From Candidatus Hadarchaeota archaeon (GTDB taxonomy: Archaea > Hadarchaeota > Hadarchaeia > Hadarchaeales > JAWBSP01): DNA of 64,000 nucleotides. A model generated the notes under the pieces. The model searched no databases. It had not been told where the DNA came from and saw only the letters and a program-made list of their open reading frames with translations. The stretch spans positions 82,619 through 146,618 of the forward strand of contig CAYYWO010000001.1 of the NCBI GenBank assembly GCA_964474885.1, written 5' to 3'. Below, piece by piece: positions 14,013 to 64,000 of the stretch (position 1 is the first letter of the stretch; every line of letters starts with the position of its first letter). Position numbers and translations under genes: made by a program.

Positions 14013-15221
14013 TTGATGCTTGACGTAGACGAAGTCCGAAGAGACTTCCCGATCCTTAAATCTGGACTCGTTTATCTCGATAACGCCGCTAGCACCCTAA
14101 CACCAGAGCGGGTTCTGCAGAAAATGTTGGAGTACTACCGGTCTTATCGCGCAAATGTTTTCAGAGGGGTTCACAGCCTCTCGAGACGGGCAACAGAGGA
14201 ATATGAACAGACGAGAGAGGAGGTACGCAAATTCATCAATGCCCGACATGTGGAGGAAATAATTTTTGTGAAGAATACCACGGAGGGCATTAATTGTGTG
14301 GCTAGGGGCCTCTCGTGGGAAAGGGGGGATCGAATAGTTTCAACTATATTGGAACACCACTCAAACTTGGTTCCATGGCAAAGGGTTGTAAGGGATCATG
14401 GGGTCGAGTTAAAGCTCGTGAGGCCTGACCGGCAAGGATACTTCCAGATGGGGGACTTCGAAGAGGCGATAGACGAACGAACGAGATTGGTGGCGATCAG
14501 TCACGTGTCAAATGTTCTGGGTTGCCGCCTCCCAGTTGAGCAGGTGGCTAGGATAGCGAGGGAGAGGGGCGCCCTTTTGCTTGTAGACGGGGCACAATCG
14601 GTGCCGCACATGCCTGTAGATGTACAGGAACTAAAATGCGACTTCCTCGTTTTCTCGGGGCACAAAATGCTGGGCCCAACAGGGGTGGGAGTTCTATACG
14701 TCCGGAAGGAAGTGCAGGAAGGGCTCGAACCGCTCACAACGGGTGGCGGGATGGTCGAAGATGTGGGAGAAAATTGTTACAGTCCGCTACCAGGACCTCA
14801 TCGTTACGAAGCTGGAACGCCCCCCATAGCTGAGGTCATCGGGCTAGGCGAAGCTATTAGATATCTGCAGGAGATTGGACTCCAAAACGTGGCGGCACAC
14901 GAGAAGAAGCTCACACGGGAGATGTTGTCACTTCTACTCGAATTGGGTGTTGAGGTGTATGGACCGATGAAGCCGGAGGATAGGATAGGTTTGCTCTCTT
15001 TCAATTTGAAGGGCGTGGATCCACATCAGGTGGCTTTGGCTTTGGATCGAAGGAGCATCATTGTGAGATCTGGACACCACTGTGCAATACCTCTACACAC
15101 CCGTCTCCTCAAGGCTCCAAGAGGAAGTGTTCGAGCTTCGGTTTATCTTTACAACGGCCTCCAAGACGTTGAGAGTTTAATTGATGCCTTGGGGAAAGTA
15201 GGTGCTCCGGCCGGGATTTGA
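14013..15221 (+). CDS. sufS: Cysteine desulfurase (SufS/Csd, class V aminotransferase)
   Basis: 402 aa. 'LDNAASTLTPE', PLP-lysine region 'SGHKMLGPTGVGVLYV'. Confidence 0.88.
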   Translation: MMLDVDEVRRDFPILKSGLVYLDNAASTLTPERVLQKMLEYYRSYRANVFRGVHSLSRRATEEYEQTREEVRKFINARHVEEIIFVKNTTEGINCVARGLSWERGDRIVSTILEHHSNLVPWQRVVRDHGVELKLVRPDRQGYFQMGDFEEAIDERTRLVAISHVSNVLGCRLPVEQVARIARERGALLLVDGAQSVPHMPVDVQELKCDFLVFSGHKMLGPTGVGVLYVRKEVQEGLEPLTTGGGMVEDVGENCYSPLPGPHRYEAGTPPIAEVIGLGEAIRYLQEIGLQNVAAHEKKLTREMLSLLLELGVEVYGPMKPEDRIGLLSFNLKGVDPHQVALALDRRSIIVRSGHHCAIPLHTRLLKAPRGSVRASVYLYNGLQDVESLIDALGKVGAPAGI

Positions 15222-15277
15222 ACCCGGGGCGCGAGCTCGAGAGGCTCGCATGTTTGGCCGGGCTACACCACCGGAGC
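15203..15277 (-). tRNA. tRNA-Glu (anticodon CTC)
   Basis: Hand-folded cloverleaf: acceptor GCTCCGG/CCGGAGC, anticodon loop CTCTCGA, T-arm CCGGG-TTCAAAT-CCCGG, A73. 3' end overlaps the last 19 nt of sufS in antisense. Confidence 0.85.
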
Positions 15278-15309
15278 ATCTTTAATTTTGAATCTCTTAC
15301 TCATATCTA

Positions 15310-15384
15310 CGGGCCCGGAGGGATTCGAACCCTCGATCTGCGGCTTAGGACGCCGCCGCCCTGTCCTGGCTAGGCCACGGGCCC
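15310..15384 (-). tRNA. tRNA-Arg (anticodon CCT)
   Basis: Cloverleaf: acceptor GGGCCCG/CGGGCCC, anticodon stem GCGGC/GCCGC, loop GTCCTAA, T-arm GAGGG-TTCGAAT-CCCTC, G73. Position 32 = G is atypical. Confidence 0.75.
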
Positions 15385-15778: not shown

Positions 15779-18019
15779 TTGATGAAGGTAAACTACAGGC
15801 GCTGGGCTATTTTAACATACTTAGGTTTCCTTATTTTCTTCTCCTTTCACGTCCTCCTGATACCTGGCGAGAAGTACAAGGTCTTAACGACTTCTGACTC
15901 GGGCTTTTTTGCAGGCATAGCTGAGGAGATAGACTCAGCCAATCATCTGGTGGACAGGTATTGGAGGTCACATGCACCCACCGGCTGGCCCTTGAGAGTA
16001 CAGGATCAGGGTCAACCTCTTCTTACCGTGATGCTTTATAGAGGCCTCTCAGCAGTCTTTCCGGGAATAGAGCTTATGGATGTCATAAACTACTGGGCCC
16101 CCCTCATGTTCGCCGTCTTTTTAATTGGAGTCTTCTTAGCTGCAAGGGAGCTGGGGGGTGATGTAGCGGGATTGGCAGCTGTTTTCTTCGCGAGTGTAAT
16201 GATATCGAGTATCTATTGGTTCAAATTTTCGGCTTATGATAGAGAATGTCTGACCCAGGCATTGTCTGCTTGGATAATCTACCTCGCAATTCTAACCATT
16301 AAGCGATCCAGTGTCGGCATGGGGGTGCTAACAGGTTTGGTTCTCTCAATTCTTGCTCTCAGCTGGCCCGGGTGGCTCTACCTAACACCCATAATTCTGG
16401 GTGCTCTGCTGCTTCCTCTCTTGTACGACTTTTTTAAGGAGGTGGTGCTCACGAGGAGGTTTGTGAGTTCCTTGATCAGAGCATTCTTAAATAACTGGAG
16501 AGTGATCGTGTCAGTCATCGTCATATTTGGGGTGGTGACGGCGCTATGCACATCTTTGGGAGAGCCTCCGAACTGGATTGGTTTTGCTCAGGTATTAGCT
16601 TCCTATGTCGGGCTGAGTGGTGGCGGAGGCCCCGCACTTCGAGCGAGATATGCTTCCGAAATGGTAGCTCCCCATTCTTTTTCTGAGGTAATGTACTCCT
16701 TTTATCGTCCAGTATACAGGAACTCGACAGCCGTTACAATCCAGGAGGTTCTGACGAGGTTTCTTTACTTTTCGATCTTCTTGGGGGTATGCAGAGTCCT
16801 CTGGACTAGGAGGAGATGGGAGTGGATCATAATCCCCTGGCTGATAATCCTCATGGGCCTAGTTTGGCCCGGGAAAGGTCAGGCTAGATTCGAGCGCCAG
16901 TGGTGGCCTTTTGTTGCTGTAGTTATGGGCCTTGCCGTGAGTACACTTTGGTGGGGGGTGAAGAAGCTGAGCCAAGAGTGGGGCTTCTCGCCTCACTATT
17001 TCCGTCCCCTACCCGTTCTATTGCTTCTCCTGTTTGTTCCCTTAGGTCAGAATGCGATTGCTCAAGCAGAGCATACAGCTCCGCCAACTGAGTGGGCAGG
17101 CCCAGGCTTTGATCAAGCGTACATTGAAGCATGCGAATGGCTCGAGAACAACACACCTGTGGACTCTGTGGTGGCAGTCGAGTGGTCCTATGGGCATCTA
17201 TTCTCCGGGGCTTCGAAACGCAGAACCGTGTGCGATGGTGTAGAAGCACTGGGACGGGAGGGCGTGTGGGAGAACAAATCCGAGATAAAACCACCGGATT
17301 ACATTTACCGGGTAGAGGGAGACAGGGCGTATATTTATGGTGTTGACATAGGAGGCGCCCTCTGGACTCTAGCACCATATAAAGTATACGGCAGGAGGAC
17401 AGATGTCCTAAGAATCCGGTACATGGACAGCGATGAGTTGAGATGGTGGTTAGAAACTTATCGGGACAACTGGGGTGTAAAAATCGATTATATCGTTCTG
17501 GACATGTGGGACTGGTGGTTGGCTTCCCGGATTGAGCAGCACAGGGCCTATTACTTGACCGCTGGTTTCGGTTCGTCACCCCTAAGGATAATAAGCTCAG
17601 TTTCAATTGAGAACCAGGATAGTATCCTTCTCCTACATTTCGGCGAAAACAGGGAGAACATAGTGATAAATACGACCACCCACCAGGTTTACCTGGCTAG
17701 GCAAGGGGCACCAGATCTGTTAATGGATGGTTACATCGATGTAATAGCGGATTCAAGAGGGAACATCCTTTCCTCTCAATACCATAAGTCCCCTAGGTTA
17801 CCTGAGGTGCCGGAAACGGTGATCCTGCTTAGGGTGCAGGGGCAAGGCATAACATCTGCTGCCCTGTATCCGTCTAGGAGAGAGGAAATAGAGCACAGAG
17901 GACCCTGTGTAGGTACGTACATGTATGCCGAAAACCTACCTGATTATTTAGAGCGAGTTTTCCTGAGTTCGAACGGTCTAGTTGCCCTCTTCAAAGTAGA
18001 TTGGGCCAAGTTAACCTGA
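15779..18019 (+). CDS. Polytopic membrane protein, possible STT3/AglB-family oligosaccharyltransferase (divergent)
   Basis: 746 aa. About 13 TM helices in N-terminal 450 aa, then a soluble C-terminal domain. 'DSVVAVEWSYGHLFSG' aligns by eye with the AglB 'DxVxxSWWDYGY' region, but WWDYG is replaced by EWSYG. Confidence 0.4.
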   Translation: MMKVNYRRWAILTYLGFLIFFSFHVLLIPGEKYKVLTTSDSGFFAGIAEEIDSANHLVDRYWRSHAPTGWPLRVQDQGQPLLTVMLYRGLSAVFPGIELMDVINYWAPLMFAVFLIGVFLAARELGGDVAGLAAVFFASVMISSIYWFKFSAYDRECLTQALSAWIIYLAILTIKRSSVGMGVLTGLVLSILALSWPGWLYLTPIILGALLLPLLYDFFKEVVLTRRFVSSLIRAFLNNWRVIVSVIVIFGVVTALCTSLGEPPNWIGFAQVLASYVGLSGGGGPALRARYASEMVAPHSFSEVMYSFYRPVYRNSTAVTIQEVLTRFLYFSIFLGVCRVLWTRRRWEWIIIPWLIILMGLVWPGKGQARFERQWWPFVAVVMGLAVSTLWWGVKKLSQEWGFSPHYFRPLPVLLLLLFVPLGQNAIAQAEHTAPPTEWAGPGFDQAYIEACEWLENNTPVDSVVAVEWSYGHLFSGASKRRTVCDGVEALGREGVWENKSEIKPPDYIYRVEGDRAYIYGVDIGGALWTLAPYKVYGRRTDVLRIRYMDSDELRWWLETYRDNWGVKIDYIVLDMWDWWLASRIEQHRAYYLTAGFGSSPLRIISSVSIENQDSILLLHFGENRENIVINTTTHQVYLARQGAPDLLMDGYIDVIADSRGNILSSQYHKSPRLPEVPETVILLRVQGQGITSAALYPSRREEIEHRGPCVGTYMYAENLPDYLERVFLSSNGLVALFKVDWAKLT

Positions 18020-38449: not shown

Positions 38450-39571
38450 ATGAGGTTATCATATGTCATGATATCGCTTTTTCTGTTCCCGCTGGTTTTT
38501 GCTCAGACGGCGGAACCCCCGACTTGGGAAGTGGGTGACGAATGGGCTTGGGGTTCAACTTGGGACATTGATAATTTTCTCAGGAATTTGGCGAATCAAG
38601 TGCCCCAACTCGCCCTAACAGAGGCAAGCGGGGAGTTCAGTTGCTATAGTGTGCAACGTGTGGCTGCTCTGCGGGGTGGAGAGTACGTGACTTCGGTTAG
38701 GGTGGGCATGGAGCTGAGAGACTTCAAGGTAACGGGAAGTTACAAGTCGCCGGAACACGGTTTGGAGCCCCTTGCAAATGTCTCTCTCAGTGCTTCAGGA
38801 TGGCTCAAGGCAAATGGGGAGTTCACATACACCCAACAACTGGCTCTGCATACCCTGAGTCTCTCTGGGAATGGTGAGCTAGAGGCGGCACTTACTGCTC
38901 CAGGTTTTTCAAGTTCCTTTGAGTTCTGGAACTTCGATTTGGGCCTTTCGGCCACCTATGACCCGCCTGCGGACATCTTTAACTTCCCAATTCAAGTTGA
39001 GGAGGAATGGGAGTACTCTGGTGCCTACTCAGGCAGAGGAAGAGTTTCGTGCGAAGTGAAAATGAGGATTGAAATGGGCGACTACGAAAATACTTGGGAG
39101 AATTCATTTTCCTACGAGGACACCTTCTCAGAGGAACTGACGGTCAAATATCGTTGCAGGGGCATTACGCAGGTTCAGACTGGAGGGAAGGAGCTTCAGT
39201 GCTTCGAGATCGAGGTGACATCTGAGGGCCAGAAAGCTCCTATTTTCATCCTGCTGTACTCTCCCGAAAAGAAAAATTTCGTAGGACTGGAGGTAAACTG
39301 GCTAGGACTCTTCTTCCAGTTTGAACCCTTCTCGGAGCACGTGAAGGAAGCAGCTGAGCAAACACCCGTCGGTCCACTAGTCGAGGAGATGGACATGGAG
39401 GGGGTTCTGCGCTCGACAGAGGAGACGGTTCAATTTTATTCCGTCTCCCCCTCCGAGGCAGAAGAGCGGATTGAGGGGATGGGTGGGAGAGAAGGTCTGC
39501 CAATTGAACTAGAGATTATACCCCCTCTTGCAATAGCAATCGTAATAATTGCTACCAGGTTGCGCAAGTAA
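38450..39571 (+). CDS. Secreted/membrane-anchored hypothetical protein
   Basis: 373 aa. Signal peptide 'MISLFLFPLVFAQTAEP', C-terminal TM anchor 'IIPPLAIAIVIIATRLRK', acidic Trp/Glu-rich body. Confidence 0.5.
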   Translation: MRLSYVMISLFLFPLVFAQTAEPPTWEVGDEWAWGSTWDIDNFLRNLANQVPQLALTEASGEFSCYSVQRVAALRGGEYVTSVRVGMELRDFKVTGSYKSPEHGLEPLANVSLSASGWLKANGEFTYTQQLALHTLSLSGNGELEAALTAPGFSSSFEFWNFDLGLSATYDPPADIFNFPIQVEEEWEYSGAYSGRGRVSCEVKMRIEMGDYENTWENSFSYEDTFSEELTVKYRCRGITQVQTGGKELQCFEIEVTSEGQKAPIFILLYSPEKKNFVGLEVNWLGLFFQFEPFSEHVKEAAEQTPVGPLVEEMDMEGVLRSTEETVQFYSVSPSEAEERIEGMGGREGLPIELEIIPPLAIAIVIIATRLRK

Positions 39572-50564: not shown

Positions 50565-50929
50565 ACTCAGCGGAATTTAACCCTACGACGAGGAAGGCAG
50601 ACGGAAAAATGTGGCGAAAGGGAAAATGACCTTGAACTCTTTTAGGATGGCTGAGCGGGCGTACGGACTGTTTAAGGCAAGGCGACCAGTTGGTGATGTG
50701 GACGAGATGCTCAAGATGGTAGGGCTGGAACTCTAGGTGTTTGACTTTTGCCTGCTTACGTGGATGTGAATGCCATTGTGTACTTGGCTGATTTCTGATT
50801 TGTTCATGGGAAAAGAGCGATGTGGGGCGTTATGGACCGGAAACGGCTCGGCGTCACGGGCACGGAGACCCTCTCGGCGAATAAGGACTTTTGACCGCGA
50901 GCCATTGTCAGGAGTTTTGAGGGCTTTTA

Positions 50930-51214
50930 ATGTCAGTCACCCACCTTCAGACCAGAAAACTTGGGTTCAAAATGAAAAGAGCTCTTTTTGAGTCTCACCG
51001 TTTAAAAATGATGGAAAGGACAATGAGGAAGGTTCCGTTTATTGACTGCATATTTCGACTCTATCAGGTGGATCCTCAAAAGCGATCTCTCGGACTGGCA
51101 TTCTGTCAGAAGGAACTCAGGAGGTTGGGCGAGGTTTATAGACACCAGCTATTCATTCGCCTAACAAGCCGGAGGCTCTCAAGCCCGCCATCAAGAAGAA
51201 ACGAGGTAATCTGA
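50930..51214 (+). CDS. Small basic hypothetical ORF in the purH/purB divergent region
   Basis: 94-aa Arg/Lys-rich ORF. Coding status uncertain. Confidence 0.2.
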   Translation: MSVTHLQTRKLGFKMKRALFESHRLKMMERTMRKVPFIDCIFRLYQVDPQKRSLGLAFCQKELRRLGEVYRHQLFIRLTSRRLSSPPSRRNEVI

Positions 51215-51384
51215 CCGCCGACGTGAGTGAGGGATCGCAGGTTGGCTTAGTTCAGTCTCTGGTAGCCGATGGGCTCAAGCAGAGGCGAAAACTCTGCTGA
51301 ACCAACGTTTGGTCGTGGAGGCAAGCCTCCGCTGAAAAACCTGGAAGCTTAGACAGTGATAATAAACCCGGCGGGAGGGTTTTT

Positions 51385-58672: not shown

Positions 58673-59380
58673 TTAAGCTAGCCCTATCGCTATCCAGTAA
58701 ACGCCCGTGTTCCAGACTGAGCCAGCCCCTCTTCCATCTTCCTGAACGTAAATACGGAAGGAGGTCGTAGTCACATCATACGCCTGGACCCAAATGTTCT
58801 CTGAGGTTTCGGCAGGATTTTCTAGCGTGAGCAGAACTGTTGGTTTTTGGGAGAAGGGCACCGGGAAGTTTATAGGAGCCGTGACCCCCTCGCCCGAGAG
58901 CCCAGTGGTGACACGTCCCCACTGAATCAACAGTGTACCGAACTTGGCATAATTTTCCTCGATTCCTGGCATCTCGAGTAGCTCGAGCGTCCCCTCTACT
59001 ATGAGGTCACCATTCACCCAGACTTTGTCCCACTGAAATCTAAACTTCTCGATTTGCCAGCTAACAGGTGGAGGTGTGTAAATATATCCACAAGGTGAGG
59101 TCATCCTCAGATTACCACTAATCTCAAGTTTCTCGGCTGGGTTTTGGACACCTATTCCCAGTTTTCCCTGGATGCCCAAGTTAGCCCCCACTTTGACCGT
59201 GTTTTCGATCAAGATTCTGCCTGAGCCTGATGAAAGTCTTAAGGTCAGATTCTTGCCGCAGTTCGGATTTGTTCCAACCGTAGTGTTTTCAAAGCAAATG
59301 TTCTCGTAGACAGTGCTGGGTCCCGAAAGTGAGACAGAAAGGATCAATAGCAGTCCAATCAGAAAAGCGGCACGCCTCAT
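58673..59380 (-). CDS. Secreted protein with C-terminal H-type-lectin-like domain (paralogue 3 of operon)
   Basis: Likely start 'MRRAAFLIGLLLILSVSLSG' (signal peptide). ORF track extends to 59422. Central 'LGIQGKLGIGVQNPAEKLEISGNLRM' tail-fibre-like motif. C-terminal 'LIQWGRVTTGLSGEGVTAPINFPVPFSQKPTVLLT...SFRIYVQ...VYWIAIG' matches the H_lectin pattern V.F...F...P.V...GF...W.A.G. Confidence 0.7.
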   Translation of the reverse strand: MRRAAFLIGLLLILSVSLSGPSTVYENICFENTTVGTNPNCGKNLTLRLSSGSGRILIENTVKVGANLGIQGKLGIGVQNPAEKLEISGNLRMTSPCGYIYTPPPVSWQIEKFRFQWDKVWVNGDLIVEGTLELLEMPGIEENYAKFGTLLIQWGRVTTGLSGEGVTAPINFPVPFSQKPTVLLTLENPAETSENIWVQAYDVTTTSFRIYVQEDGRGAGSVWNTGVYWIAIGLA

Positions 59381-60129
59381 GTTCCCTCCCCCACGGCTAT
59401 CCAGTTGATGAATACATCCCAAGAGTCGGATGGCGGGGAGATGTCACCGTCCCTTTGTTCCCACACTTTAAAGCCCCTTTTCGTAACAGAGGCAACCTGG
59501 ATCCAGTAATCAAAGGAGTTCGGGTCTAGGTAGTTCGTCACATCCGCCGTGACGGCCACGCTGGGAGTGCTCTTGAATTCCCGTGGGAAAGTTATGGAGT
59601 AGTAGCCTTCATCGCTCAATCCTGTTCTTTGTCTGCCCCACTGGAGGAGCAAGGGCCCTATTTTCACCCAGTAAGCCTCGCCGGAGGTGTTGACATTGTA
59701 CTTGCTCACCATGCCCTCCTCTTTGAAGCTAGTCATCAGGAGTCTCCCCAAAACGTTTAACCTGTGTATCTTCGTCCCTTCCCTCGAGACCGACAGCAGA
59801 ACCTCGTCCCAGTTACCGAGCATGGTGATCTCTCCGTAAATGAAAGAGTTTGGATTGGCAAATTTCACCTTCCCGCAAACTTCCAGCCCTTGAATGGTAC
59901 CCGTTGAGCCTATGCCCACCCTGCTCCCCGCGATTAGGTCGCCAGATATCGAGACAGAACTCTGTTCGATCTGCAGGACACCTGAGGGGGATGTCAGCCA
60001 GAGCCTAGGGGCTCGCAAGGTGGTGTTCTCGATGGAGATGTTCTCCCCGTCCACTTGGAACAGAGCATCTGAGAGCTTGACCATCAACAGCAGGCTGATT
60101 AAGCAGATGAGACAATATAACTTTCGCAT
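59377..60129 (-). CDS. Secreted protein with C-terminal H-type-lectin-like domain (paralogue 2 of operon)
   Basis: Likely start 'MRKLYCLICLISLLLMVKLSDA' at 60129, 2 nt after the stop of the giant gene. ORF track extends to 60171. 'VGIGSTGTIQGLEVCGKVKF' motif. C-terminal 'LLQWGRQRTGLSDEGYYSITFPREFKSTPSVAVT...GFKVWEQ...INWIAVG'. Stop overlaps the start of paralogue 3 (ATGA). Confidence 0.7.
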   Translation of the reverse strand: MRKLYCLICLISLLLMVKLSDALFQVDGENISIENTTLRAPRLWLTSPSGVLQIEQSSVSISGDLIAGSRVGIGSTGTIQGLEVCGKVKFANPNSFIYGEITMLGNWDEVLLSVSREGTKIHRLNVLGRLLMTSFKEEGMVSKYNVNTSGEAYWVKIGPLLLQWGRQRTGLSDEGYYSITFPREFKSTPSVAVTADVTNYLDPNSFDYWIQVASVTKRGFKVWEQRDGDISPPSDSWDVFINWIAVGEGT

Positions 60130-60131
60130 TT

Positions 60132-63100
60132 TCACCACCCTATTGCCATCCAGTGGATTGGAATGTCCCAATCCACCCCCGTGTTTACCTTATCCTGTTG
60201 CAACCATGCCTTGAAGCCCAGCGGGCTCACGTCATACACTTGGCAGACCCAGATGTTCTCTGCGGAGCTGGCAGTTTCTATCTCTGGCGTGACGATCACA
60301 ACGGGGAGGCAGTTGAAGGGTCTGGGGAAGCTGACTGAGAACCCACCCTCACTTGTTAGACCGCTTTTGATCTGCCCCCACTGAATGAGGAGACCTCCGA
60401 TCCGGATCCACCACCAGTTTTCATCCCCTCCGATATTCTCGGAATTCTCGAGAGATGCCTCTAGCCTCCTCACCTTGAGCGGGCCCAGCACAGGGTAAGA
60501 GGTATCGATGTATGGTATTCTGGCGAAAGTTTGTTCTTGTCCCACTTGGATCTCTTCAGGCTCCCATAAGGCAGGTTTCCTGCACCACAAATGCTGCTTG
60601 GGTATAGGGAAAGTAATACTCCCGCCTGGCTTGACCCATCCGAGCCCCAACCTCCATTCTCCCTCCCCTTGATTCCACTCGAGTCTCACTGGGACAGGGA
60701 CCGAGGCTACGAGGTCAACTTTACACTTGTGAAGTGTCGGGGGCTGGGGTCTCCATTGAGAAATGACCACCCTGTTGTTCTCATAAAGCTGACAGGCATC
60801 ATCGGTAGCTACGAGCAACTGGTAAGTACCGCTCTCTGGTGGGAGGAGCCAGCCCTCCCACCTCAGACTGAGATTTTGGGTGGCGTCCTCCCAAGAGTTT
60901 GTGCCCGGTTTTCTGGCCTCTATGATGACATCATCGACGGCGATCCAAGATTCCTCTGATCCACCGATCCCGGCTTGATCTTTCACATAAATGTACAGGC
61001 GTACGGCTGTCACGCTGGATCGGACGGTCATCTGCCCCTGCATCTGGTACCAGACTCCAGTAGAGACGGAGTGTGATCCAGACAAGTAACGTGAGCATAT
61101 GGTTTTCCACTCTGATCCCTCAAGCACCTCCAATCTGATTTCCTCTACATCTAGTTCTCCATCCCCTCCGTAGCAGTACCAAAGGGAACCCCTGACTTCG
61201 TATCCGGCTGGGATTTCAGTAGGCAGATCTTGGGACCAATAAGCGTATCCTATATACGTGGTGGTGCCATCCCATGGTCTGTCATATCCCCAAACTTTCA
61301 CGGAGCCGCTACCGTCACCTGTATGATCCTCGGTGGTCCAGCCTGGTTGCTTATCGGTTTCTCCCGGGTCTGAATGATCTCCCAGCACCCAATTATCTGG
61401 CTGTCCATCACCGTCCGTATCTGCCATTTTGCCATTTGTTGTTTTATTTTCCCAATCTCCAGCTTGATCAATTACCTCCAGACTCAAGTCGTCTACAAGT
61501 ATTGCGGAGACCTGACCATCACCATCATCCCTGACACCGATGTGGATCAAGAAGTTGTCTACTGTTCCGGTAGTAGTGTACTCCTTCTTGAAGAGATACC
61601 ACTTCTTGGTCGTTACAGAATGGCTTTCGTCGGTGCACCAACCCCAGCTCTCCCAGCTCCCGTCCTGTCTGATCTTGACTTGGACATTTTCGTAGTCTAG
61701 CTCCCCATCTCCTCGGTAACAGTACCAGAATTGTATCTTGATAGTCGTGTTCGGTGGAATTGGGCCGATGGACTGCCACCACTCCGCATCTTTTTGGGAA
61801 CCGTTTCCCGAGATGACACATAGACAAGCACTATTGTCAGCAGAGTGTTCCTGCCCGACCAAGGTAGCTAGACTGTCGTCTCCTGTTGTGTAGGTGACTT
61901 TCCAATCCCAGTCGGGGAGAACTGCGATGTCTTGAGCAAAGTTGCCGTTGACGATCCTTTCTTGTCCATCTGACAGCAGCGAAACACTGTCAATCCACAA
62001 CCAGTTATAGCGATCTCCCACTGAACCTCCATAGTCTTCCACATAGATGTATAATCGGACCCATTCTACCTCAGAGGAAGTAGTATAGCTACCTGTTGCG
62101 GATGTCCAGTCTGTCGCTCCACCGACCTCTCCACTGAATGAAGTCACGGTTGACCAGCTATCCCCATCCAGAACCTCCAACTTGATCGTGACTTGGTCGA
62201 ACTCCCCGTTCGTTGTCCAGTAGAATGAGCCGGACAGGGAGCTTCCTGCAGGGATGGGAGGAGAAATGAACTGTCTCAACTCCACTTCCTCATACTCTGT
62301 TTCAAGTGCTCCCGCCTGTACATCGATGGCAAAGGAGTGACTCCCATCACCATCGTGGTCCCGGTGATACTCAGTGTCGAAGTTCGATCCCTTGCTACAG
62401 CATACGCCAGGGGCCATCATGTCCTCAGGATCCACTCGGTACACGAACATGATCCAGTTGTTTGGGCGGATCTCTCCGTTTCTCAGGACTTCATGCGTCC
62501 CCTTGAAGGTGGCTGCAACTTTTTCGGTAGTCCCATAAGCGGGATTGTCTACTACGCCGCCGCATTTATTCGGGGCACCATAGACATCCGTTCCTCTGTA
62601 GGAGTCAAAGTTTGTTCCAGCGTAGTAAAAGTACCTCAGTCCTTCATCCATGGTCGCTTGGATGTTGTCCGATAATCGGGATTTCGTGGCCGAGGGATTG
62701 CCATAGTACATGTAGATTTTGGAGGGGGTTGAGGGAACGCGGATCCAGATCTTGGTAGAGGTCGTGTTTTTCCCAGATTCTACCCACCAGGGTATCTCGG
62801 TTCCGTCTCCTGTCACGAACCTGAGGTCGGAGAGATCTGGCTTCAGCTTTCCCTGGGAGATGAGGCTTTTTGTGTCGAGTGTGAGGAGCAGCTGAACATC
62901 GGGAGCGTTTCGCACTACGCTAGCTCCAGGCTCGGCGTATCTGACTTGGAGAACCGGGCGCTCACTTGTTGCCTCTCTAGAGTTGAACTCCGCCCAGACA
63001 CCATAGGCCCGCTCTGCCTCTATATCAGTCCGCATCATGAGGGATATCAGGTTGTCGGAGTCCAGCTCTCTCTGGACCAAGTCATAGGGGATGGCCCACT

Positions 63101-64000
63101 TTATCCATTCATCGACAGGGTTTTGTCCATCGTTCGGCCCATACCAGGTGACTGAACCTATAATGTTCTCTGAGGGATTGGGGTCTGTTCCATAGGGCTG
63201 ATTGTTCCAAGTTATCGTGGTCTCCTCCCAGCTGTCATCGCCACAGAAATGTAGAACGGCGGTGAATGAATCATCAGCCTTGTAGTCAGCCTCCGTGCAG
63301 TAGATCATGAACTTGGCTGAAAGGATGGTCGAGCCAGGAGGTATGGAGGATAGATCAAACCGGAGATATGAGCGGTGATCATTTCTCACGAAGAACCGAT
63401 AATATGATTCGACTCGGAGATCTGCGGTGGTTCCGTAATTTCCGTCCGGATCTCCCTCTCGGACCTTTGCATCGGCAACCGGTTCGAGTGTAACGGTTTT
63501 GCTGATACCACCACTCAGGAACATGAAGGTCTCGGGGATCTGGATGGCCCTCCTGAACGACCAGCCGTCCAAGTGCCATTCAGTGTTATCCATTTCTGCC
63601 CCTAGCCTCAAGTTTTCACCTATAATCCCCACATCTGGACCGCTGAGTTTCAGGTGTCCGTAAATCTCCAAGTTCTCTCTTATCGGAGTTCCCCAGTAGT
63701 AAGGTATGCCTATTCCAACCTTTCCTGAAACATATGAAACCTGTTCCGAACTGCCCAGCACATGAACGGAAGCCAGCAGATCCCTTAACTCGAAGTAGGT
63801 GACAACGAATCTGTTATAGTGGGTTGAGGAGGTTCTAGCCCCCACTCCAGCCAACTTTCCCAACTCCCGCGGGGCATCTGTAAAGGAAAGAATAAGATCT
63901 CCTTCGTAGTATACCTCAAACTCGCCCGAATAATATACCACCCTGAAGCTGTGCCACCCGTTGTTTATAGCGAGGTCGTTTTCTGCAAGGACATCGCCGT
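60132..64000 (-). CDS. Giant secreted multidomain lectin/adhesin-like protein (over 1290 aa; N-terminus outside window)
   Basis: Reading frame stays open past the ORF-track start, which is only a GTG at 63941, up to the window edge. Domain-like modules by eye: 'VGIGIPYYWGTPIRENLEIYGHLKL' tail-fibre-like motif; DNRLRE-like module 'YLRFDLSSIPPGSTILSAKFMIY...DSWEETTITWNNQP'; three about 150-aa repeats carrying 'GDGELDYENVQVKI' / 'GDGELDVEEIRLEV' / 'NGEFDQVTIKLEV'; PA14-like 'GTYQLLVATDDACQLYENNRVVISQW'; C-terminal H-type-lectin-like 'LLIQWGQIKSGLTSEGGFSVSFPRPFNCLPVVIVT...GFKAWLQ...IHWMAIGW'. Confidence 0.75.
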   Translation of the reverse strand, partial: GDVLAENDLAINNGWHSFRVVYYSGEFEVYYEGDLILSFTDAPRELGKLAGVGARTSSTHYNRFVVTYFELRDLLASVHVLGSSEQVSYVSGKVGIGIPYYWGTPIRENLEIYGHLKLSGPDVGIIGENLRLGAEMDNTEWHLDGWSFRRAIQIPETFMFLSGGISKTVTLEPVADAKVREGDPDGNYGTTADLRVESYYRFFVRNDHRSYLRFDLSSIPPGSTILSAKFMIYCTEADYKADDSFTAVLHFCGDDSWEETTITWNNQPYGTDPNPSENIIGSVTWYGPNDGQNPVDEWIKWAIPYDLVQRELDSDNLISLMMRTDIEAERAYGVWAEFNSREATSERPVLQVRYAEPGASVVRNAPDVQLLLTLDTKSLISQGKLKPDLSDLRFVTGDGTEIPWWVESGKNTTSTKIWIRVPSTPSKIYMYYGNPSATKSRLSDNIQATMDEGLRYFYYAGTNFDSYRGTDVYGAPNKCGGVVDNPAYGTTEKVAATFKGTHEVLRNGEIRPNNWIMFVYRVDPEDMMAPGVCCSKGSNFDTEYHRDHDGDGSHSFAIDVQAGALETEYEEVELRQFISPPIPAGSSLSGSFYWTTNGEFDQVTIKLEVLDGDSWSTVTSFSGEVGGATDWTSATGSYTTSSEVEWVRLYIYVEDYGGSVGDRYNWLWIDSVSLLSDGQERIVNGNFAQDIAVLPDWDWKVTYTTGDDSLATLVGQEHSADNSACLCVISGNGSQKDAEWWQSIGPIPPNTTIKIQFWYCYRGDGELDYENVQVKIRQDGSWESWGWCTDESHSVTTKKWYLFKKEYTTTGTVDNFLIHIGVRDDGDGQVSAILVDDLSLEVIDQAGDWENKTTNGKMADTDGDGQPDNWVLGDHSDPGETDKQPGWTTEDHTGDGSGSVKVWGYDRPWDGTTTYIGYAYWSQDLPTEIPAGYEVRGSLWYCYGGDGELDVEEIRLEVLEGSEWKTICSRYLSGSHSVSTGVWYQMQGQMTVRSSVTAVRLYIYVKDQAGIGGSEESWIAVDDVIIEARKPGTNSWEDATQNLSLRWEGWLLPPESGTYQLLVATDDACQLYENNRVVISQWRPQPPTLHKCKVDLVASVPVPVRLEWNQGEGEWRLGLGWVKPGGSITFPIPKQHLWCRKPALWEPEEIQVGQEQTFARIPYIDTSYPVLGPLKVRRLEASLENSENIGGDENWWWIRIGGLLIQWGQIKSGLTSEGGFSVSFPRPFNCLPVVIVTPEIETASSAENIWVCQVYDVSPLGFKAWLQQDKVNTGVDWDIPIHWMAIGW

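Follow-up and report, generated by a model that had tools for sequence, protein, structure and literature searches.

The window described here, a stretch of 64,000 nucleotides (nt) from a Candidatus Hadarchaeota archaeon (assembly GCA_964474885.1, contig CAYYWO010000001.1, positions 82,619 to 146,618 of the forward strand), ends within an operon of five genes that probably builds a pilin-anchored, glycan-binding adhesin fibre. Three of these genes, hereafter the giant, the middle and the last gene, encode paralogues with a common C-terminal knob, and the giant, a protein of 1613 amino acids (aa), is by its sequence an archaeal and much enlarged form of the 'pilin plus H-type-lectin knob' tip adhesins, combined with adhesins of the DUF2341 type. 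Adhesion in archaea is still poorly understood, and to our knowledge the structure of an archaeal pilus-tip adhesin has yet to be characterised. The locus offers a compact candidate in this regard, a modular archaeal pilin ending in the trimeric-knob fold of phage and pyocin fibres and of CofB/TcpB. A first-pass annotation of this DNA was not aware of any characterised archaeal system of such architecture, which needs to be qualified, since close conceptual precedents exist in CofB/TcpB and in the predicted archaeal DUF2341 tip adhesins (PMC4858521). What is new is the archaeal occurrence, the fusion of a phage-fibre scaffold to a pilin, and a conserved trio in which one paralogue is anchored and the other two lack an anchor.

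The three paralogues are encoded, as had been noticed before, by consecutive genes of the minus strand separated by a 2-nt gap and an ATGA overlap, an arrangement borne out by the six-frame list of open reading frames (ORFs) and by the sequence itself (positions 1-64,000 and strand refer to the window). The 3' 3.87 kb of the giant gene (60132..64000, -) correspond to aa 326-1613 of the 1613-aa protein P0005, which a word-indexed search with the visible sequence retrieved at 100% identity over 1288 aa; the remaining 325 aa and the 5' 975 nt encoding them, including the pilin N-terminus, fall past the end of the window. At the giant/middle junction (60130..60140, -), a Shine-Dalgarno (SD)-like GGGTGG is found together with the TGA stop of the giant (60134-60132), two A residues and the ATG of the middle gene at 60129, and at the middle/last junction (59377..59389, -) a GGAGG (59389-59385) precedes the ATGA start/stop overlap (59380-59377). 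Such tight junctions, with SD-like motifs before both internal starts, support the translational coupling advanced for the trio. The middle gene (59377..60129, -) encodes 250 aa, with a signal peptide (60064-60129), the ENxxxENT and GIG segments described below and a knob (59389-59652); the last gene (58673..59380, -), whose 235-aa product is P0001, shows the same succession of signal peptide (59324-59380), ENxxxENT and GIG segments and knob (58682-58933). For the middle gene, the public call (P0029, 235 aa) takes the internal Met16 as its start and so lacks the signal peptide; we favour the longer 250-aa ORF because its hydrophobic N-terminus is kept in orthologues and the SD-like GGGTGG stands upstream of it.

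The idea of a three-gene operon had to be abandoned after another assembly of the same genome region (L002), reached through P0005, extended the view beyond position 64000. Only the giant gave access to such a contig; exact look-ups with the middle protein, the last protein and TFB led to none. Two same-strand genes for pilin-like proteins of 832 aa (L002 6561-9059) and 308 aa (L002 9053-9979) lie directly upstream of the giant, and the resulting block of ~9.7 kb runs 832-aa gene, 308-aa gene, 1613-aa giant, 250-aa middle and 235-aa last gene, in which the first two genes overlap by 7 nt, the 308-aa gene and the giant are 21 nt apart, the giant and the middle gene 2 nt apart, and the middle and last genes overlap by 4 nt. 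Reading upstream of the window, one of the checks that had been suggested, recovered in this way both the N-terminus of the giant, which is of the pilin type, and the two further genes.

This N-terminus reads MKG↓ISPVVATVLLIAVV, where the arrow marks the predicted processing site (the start of P0005 was read as MKG↓ISPVVATVLLIAVVLAGAAIY and is also given as KG↓ISPVVATVLL), with [KR]G followed by a hydrophobic helix. Pilin_N (PF07790) matches P0005 with 32.1 bits at aa 2-81, above its gathering threshold of 25.2, the NCBIfam model arch_flag_Nterm scores just below its cut-off on the giant (17.7 vs 20), and one member of the cluster of P0006, an orthologue of the giant with 45% identity, carries the JGI label 'flagellin-like protein'. 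The giant is not simply a secreted protein, because its N-terminus is that of an archaeal class III signal or type IV pilin, and the earlier view of all three products as secreted to the outside applies to the small proteins, which have Sec-type N-termini, and not to the giant. After the pilin domain (aa 1 to ~180) comes a three-segment scaffold resembling tail fibres: 'ENxxxENT'; 'GxxGIG...LExxG'; and a neck with the H-type-lectin-fold knob. The small-protein motif '(Y/G)ENIxFENTTxxT...LxLxSxSG' corresponds to giant aa ~183-218 (hhalign probability 94%, E-value (E) 1e-7) and 'G(K/R)(V/L)GIG...LE(I/V)xG' to giant aa 415-445, the three segments being collinear across all three paralogues; in the window, the second segment of the giant, with the GIG...LExxG motif 'SGKVGIGIPYYWGTPIRENLEIYGHLKLSGP', is located at 63636..63731 (-) and matches the motif of the last gene by BLASTP with E 0.016. 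The giant can be read from its sequence as a pilin domain plus the scaffold of the small proteins plus two inserts of ~1200 aa in total, one of ~190 aa (LamG-like by eye only) and another of ~1000 aa with the carbohydrate-binding modules (CBM), DUF2341 and PA14. These are a CBM96/DNRLRE domain at 62940..63497 (-) (PF24517, 82.5 bits; NCBIfam NF033679, 83 bits), DUF2341 at 62655..62837 (-) (PF10102, 50.3-52.3 bits), CBM_4_9 at 61539..61880 (-) (PF02018, 30-33.7 bits, with two more similar stretches nearby, by eye) and a GLEYA-like PA14 at 60618..60890 (-) (PF07691, 46 bits).

The scaffold itself is fibrous and tail-fibre-like. In a search of a representative library, many very long proteins show between 10 and 41 distinct matching stretches to the GIG portion of the profile, and a search of PDB profiles with the family alignment gave weak matches of the scaffold region to a Bdellovibrio fibre and to MYRF. 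The scaffold is moreover shared with phage fibres, as shown by P0002, whose four GIG-type repeats precede a genuine H_lectin domain (77 bits) that keeps the canonical Arg, and which sits in a phage-tail-like cluster together with Tail_P2_I and Peptidase_S74 genes (L087 1-9333, Ga0335084_10000504).

That the three proteins share their C-terminal module, as originally pointed out, is beyond chance by BLASTP (middle against last, E 2e-21 over 229 aa; giant against last, E 2e-20 over 179 aa; giant against middle, E 1e-19 over 167 aa), and the motifs then quoted (LLIQWG, FP.PF and W.A.G) are invariant columns of the alignment. The neck and knob of the giant (60135..60653, -) comprise 173 aa common to both small proteins, the knob alone (Gp53-like_C) covering 60135-60398. 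Profile and structure searches, run as had been recommended, bear out the H-type lectin fold and place the module in a fold with lectin homologues. Gp53-like_C (Pfam PF21882) scores 33.8, 32.5 and 37.9 bits in the giant, middle and last proteins, above the gathering threshold of 24.9 in all three, and H_lectin (Pfam PF09458, gathering threshold 24) scores 25.8 bits in the middle and 34.5 in the last protein, and stays below threshold in the giant (15.1). A profile of the module matches the PDB sequences of discoidin II (E 2.7e-5), SLL-2 (E 3.5e-5) and discoidin I (E 3e-4) and, more weakly, those of HPA/HAA (E 2e-3) and gp53 of phage AP22 (E 0.028), so that the likeness to canonical H-type lectins (HPA, SLL-2, discoidin I/II) is one of fold, with profile E of 3e-5 to 2e-3. 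An AlphaFold2 (AF2) model of the last 102 residues of the giant, with seven strands, a predicted local distance difference test (pLDDT) score of 84.9 and a predicted template modelling (pTM) score of 0.76, agrees in Foldseek searches with the beta-sandwich fold of HPA and discoidin and matches AP22 gp53; the top matches are homotrimeric fibres or lectins, phage and pyocin fibres among them, and the solved structures at the top of the list are described as trimeric assemblies. The knob region is also matched by tail-fibre and lectin families of PHROG.

The sugar-binding site offers a different picture. The residues of HPA that bind N-acetylgalactosamine (GalNAc) are reportedly Arg63, Trp83/His84 and Tyr89, as Sanchez et al. 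are said to have described in 2006. The canonical site is not conserved in the knobs, because in the HMMER alignment to HPA Arg63 is replaced by N/D/N, Trp83-His84 by D-G and Tyr89 by W. Lectin activity of the knob is therefore doubtful, and the module is nearer to the fibre-knob branch than to the lectin branch of the fold: the best family and structural matches are the knobs of phage and R-pyocin fibres (AP22 gp53, R1/R2 pyocin), where a GIG-type repeat also precedes the knob. Those tail fibres are trimers of one single chain, and here we find three unequal paralogues, one of them fused to a pilin, in a five-gene operon without phage or tailocin context. The original interpretation, in which three secreted chains make up a hetero-oligomeric lectin fibre and carbohydrate is bound at canonical H-type lectin sites, draws on the fold and on the matches to Pfam H_lectin; it now looks quite improbable, since the giant starts with a pilin N-terminus instead of a plain signal peptide, Gp53-like_C outscores H_lectin in all three proteins and the equivalents of Arg63 and Trp83/His84 are not conserved. 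Glycan binding would more plausibly come from the CBM96, CBM4_9, PA14 and LamG modules than from the knob.

The small paralogues lack any Pilin_N or class III feature. Their N-termini combine a positive n-region (MRK or MRR) with a hydrophobic core of 13-14 residues, and predicted cleavage falls at a small-x-small site (SDA↓L in one, SLS↓G in the other). This pattern is kept in orthologues (SQA↓G, SYA↓G), at a distance of 5-8 residues from the conserved ENxxxEN motif that follows, and it supports as Sec-type the signal peptides that the annotation had claimed. A class III reading of these N-termini was considered and rejected, the apparent 'MRRA↓AF' not being kept in orthologues (MMRC..., MKRF...), where AxA-type sites are. 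After the predicted cleavage of the signal peptide, the mature small proteins would equal the bare scaffold.

All three paralogues are kept as orthologues in another locus (L001) and in L003 and L004, two loci of the L001 type that were the only further ones found in the metagenome scan. Both the TGA-NN-ATG and the ATGA junctions are conserved in L001, and in L003 the TGA-NN-ATG was read directly and the six-frame translation is consistent with the ATGA overlap. The middle protein shares 57% identity with its counterpart in L001, against 32-34% with its paralogues, and the last protein is 53% identical to its L001 orthologue; over the C-terminal 100 aa, identities reach 62% between giants, 70% between middle proteins and 51% between last proteins, against 40-49% between paralogues. 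Orthologue identities above those of paralogues indicate that the triplication predates the split of the two lineages, each of which, by this comparison, has retained the three copies.

The nearest relatives outside this group come from a bacterial-type contig (L085 1-4815; contig JBFOMZ010034571.1, GCA_040961635.1) that encodes a prepilin-like protein of 154 aa, a PilM_2 protein of 524 aa (PF11104) and then, directly downstream and 4 nt apart from each other, P0063 (265 aa, GIG plus knob) and P0057 (657 aa, DUF2341 plus Gp53-like_C). Similarity between the two proteins is confined to an N-terminal segment (E 7e-14) and to the C-terminus with GIG and knob (E 9e-41), P0057 having an insert of ~420 aa that includes DUF2341. 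Judged from these sequences, short and long paralogues with common ends, tied to type IV pilus genes, recur outside archaea as an independent parallel, and this design may be a general solution, not described before, by which archaea and bacteria alike attach receptor-binding fibres of the phage kind to type IV filaments. The short/long pair of the pilM locus moreover makes the idea of co-assembly testable in more than one system.

How the chains assemble is a more delicate matter. For the giant, a prepilin peptidase would process the class III signal, and the N-terminal helix would then insert at the tip or the base of a filament resembling a type IV pilus, or in the membrane, the tip being most likely; the pilus assembly machinery would be encoded elsewhere in the genome. 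The knob of the giant would trimerise, as in the top solved structural matches, and the two mature small proteins could complete with it a 1:1:1 heterotrimer, a proposal that we hold tentatively and in which each assembly would have a single pilin anchor and a single group of bulky binding modules. The hetero-oligomer put forward in the annotation stays plausible in this form and gains indirect support. We lean to such a heterotrimer because, once mature, the small proteins would amount to nothing more than the scaffold, because a homotrimer of 1613-aa chains would be crowded, because the trio is conserved and coupled and its design recurs in L085, and because the HPA trimer interface is formed by the N- and C-terminal strands (PMC5793061), whose equivalents in the alignment are the segments invariant across the three paralogues. 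The complete picture, perhaps a shade more tentative still, would be an asymmetric heterotrimeric pilus-tip fibre with one pilin-anchored giant and two anchorless 'filler' paralogues, whose chains would zip through the three collinear tail-fibre segments and a mixed knob of the H-type-lectin fold. If the three paralogues do co-assemble, they would give the H-type-lectin/gp53-knob fold its first heterotrimeric member, and would show how a trimeric receptor-binding fibre of the phage type mounts on a single pilin position.

The best precedent in bacteria points to another arrangement. CofB and TcpB, minor pilins of the type IVb pili CFA/III of enterotoxigenic Escherichia coli and TCP of Vibrio cholerae, combine in one chain a pilin N-terminus and a C-terminal domain of the H-type-lectin fold, with beta-rich domains between the pilin moiety and the trimerising tip domain. 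CofB forms a homotrimer at the pilus tip, where its H-type-lectin part binds no GalNAc, the canonical site being unused as in TcpB, and its interface docks the secreted protein CofJ of the same operon (PMC6048534). Neither sequence homology nor close structural homology of the giant to these pilins was found, and the likeness is one of architecture only. By analogy, a homotrimer of the giant could cap or initiate the pilus with three pilin helices, and the small paralogues would form separate anchorless fibres, homo- or heterotrimeric, either released or docked on the tip or on targets, in the manner of CofJ and TcpF, which are secreted partners of type IVb pili. All the top structural matches being homotrimeric fibres or lectins, and the paralogue knobs having diverged to 40-49% identity, are points in its favour; it faces the steric demands of three 1613-aa chains with bulky inserts between their trimerising segments, the absence of any anchor or distinct effector domain in the small proteins, the retention of the tightly coupled three-paralogue set in both lineages, and the invariance of the interface strands already described. 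We regard it as slightly less likely than the heterotrimer and as its main competitor. Another bacterial parallel is given by PilB and PilC of Streptococcus sanguinis, where adhesive modules, including a lectin, are grafted on a pilin moiety and presented by a minor-pilin tip complex (PMC9934059); these proteins are much smaller and have no trimeric knob.

Several observations weigh against the asymmetric fibre, or against the five-gene unit that would build it. The viable CofB homotrimer of pilin-anchored knobs indicates that small chains are not needed in principle, and the AF2 model of the full-length last protein, obtained with an alignment of 5 sequences, is poor (pLDDT 40), even if Foldseek searches with it still return the same fold families. 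The 832-aa and 308-aa proteins score below the Pfam and NCBIfam pilin thresholds. N-glycosylation sequons, 4.5 times denser in the operon proteins than in housekeeping proteins, count in favour of the adhesin, but their excess largely reflects amino-acid composition. Nor is it obligatory for the five genes to form one unit, because in L001 the pair upstream of the trio, a LamG/DUF2341 protein of 818 aa and a 310-aa protein, is divergently transcribed. Finally, the Pfam scan, which covered 30 of the 84 window ORFs of at least 120 aa, revealed no type IV pilus ATPase (VirB11-type), TadC/FlaJ or prepilin peptidase, and none is seen in the 10 kb past the window (called genes of L002); stand-alone pilin loci are frequent in archaea (PMC4858521).

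Pilin-like N-termini are also present in the upstream pair. The 832-aa protein, with the N-terminus MRDRG↓VSVIIYAVMM, contains Laminin_G_3, DUF2341 (59.1 bits) and a sub-threshold L-type-lectin region, and the 308-aa protein starts with MVDESG↓ISVVVGAVLIVAVLI (also given as SG↓ISVVV). Archaeal clade-1 type IV pilus loci (Epd-type, Methanococcus/Thermococcus) encode two large DUF2341 proteins along with small class III signal proteins, and Makarova, Koonin & Albers predicted in 2016, by analogy with PilY1, that these DUF2341 proteins are pilus-tip adhesins (PMC4858521); a DUF2341 gene of the epd locus of M. maripaludis is required for transformation (PMC10133366). The present locus resembles them in co-encoding two large DUF2341 proteins, the 832-aa protein and the giant, with class III signal proteins. 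It differs in that the ATPase, TadC and peptidase of the clade-1 loci are not seen, and in the tail-fibre scaffold and knob of the giant and its two knob-only paralogues, which are not described in those loci (PMC4858521). The CBM96, CBM4_9, PA14 and LamG modules would bind polysaccharide or the glycans of cell surfaces, and such a set suggests that members of this little-known, uncultivated lineage related to Hadarchaeota attach to polysaccharide or to partner cells through their glycans.

Such a wealth of CBM and lectin modules, with no pilus machinery seen nearby, would also suit a bindosome-like surface array, in which a class III signal anchors or assembles glycan binders without a pilus for polysaccharide uptake, as known for the sugar-binding proteins assembled by the Bas system of Sulfolobus (PMC3047682, PMC4858521). 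We consider this unlikely: genes for an ABC transporter, a glycoside hydrolase or Bas-like proteins are absent next to the operon, a tail-fibre scaffold with a knob is typical of adhesive fibres and not of solute-binding proteins, and the DUF2341 pair resembles predicted pilus-tip adhesins.

Two minor features of the upstream pair can be added here. The LamG region of the 832-aa protein matches the NCBIfam model of TafC, the tip adhesin of haloarchaeal Tat-fimbriae, with E 2.6e-14, far below the equivalog cut-off of that model, a match that suggests that LamG tip modules recur across unrelated archaeal filaments. The 308-aa protein and its 310-aa counterpart (L002 9053-9979 and L001 1529-2461) conserve a zinc-finger-like motif, 'ECPFDG(E/R)xFxNxxxYExHMxxVH', unexpected if they are extracellular, as presumed, and match no Pfam or NCBIfam family.

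The setting of the operon is chromosomal, as had been stated, with housekeeping genes on both sides: on one side, 27 nt separate the end of the gene of isoleucyl-tRNA synthetase (IleRS) from the 832-aa gene, and on the other the genes of rpS8e, Gar1 and TFB come after the last gene. A TATA-like 'TTTCATAA' occurs ~20 nt upstream of the 832-aa gene, although its role as a promoter is a guess only. The knob of phage or pyocin type, its matches to PHROG tail-fibre families and the relative P0002 in a phage-tail cluster raise the question of a remnant or domesticated tail-fibre module from an archaeal virus or tailocin. This origin is very improbable, since neither other viral genes nor an integrase or flanking tRNA occur at the five-gene operon, its GC content is 0.50 against 0.53 for the flanks, and a scan of viral contigs for the knob family found nothing. 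A prophage origin was rejected on the same grounds of housekeeping flanks, GC content and empty viral scan.

The family is, from these searches, a rare one. An exhaustive search of the representative library gave 3893 matches at E <=1e-3, roughly 300 of them at E <=1e-10; among the best 150, P0032 and P0033 are small proteins with the full-length scaffold, P0063 matches over the knob, and P0034 and P0039 are short and represent fragments of proteins of the L001 lineage. A scan of 185,579 GTDB species representatives with the giant alignment revealed no relative, and word-indexed searches, with the last protein as with the family alignment, yielded little beyond self-matches. The IleRS beside the operon has its nearest relatives in metagenome-assembled genomes of Hadarchaeota, at 58-59% identity, which carry no such operon after their IleRS gene.

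The second lineage shows an additional feature. In loci of the L001 type the trio is followed by a transglutaminase-like gene and then by more pilin-like genes. The first of these, placed directly after the small knob genes, encodes a membrane protein with a transglutaminase-like/BTLCP cysteine-protease fold (PF01841, PF06035; L001 10809-11636, L003 6780-7607, L004 4681-5508), and it precedes genes for a 236-aa protein and for a 276-aa class III-signal protein, none of the three being present in the genome of the window.

Elsewhere in the window, the 30 scanned ORFs were housekeeping genes or had no match (among them Rad50/Mre11, RFC, GatAB, HisRS, EF-1a, FtsZ and purine genes). The ~820 nt between purH and the adenylosuccinate lyase gene (50565-51384) contain no ORF longer than 94 aa and no Rfam match at gathering thresholds, and an ORF of 373 aa upstream of nadA (38450-39571, +) has no Pfam match at E 0.01. 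The same holds for a polytopic membrane protein of 746 aa with a large C-terminal soluble domain (15779-18019, +), whose gene adjoins two tRNA genes (15203-15384) and whose 'WSYGH' recalls the WWDYG motif of the AglB/STT3 oligosaccharyltransferases.

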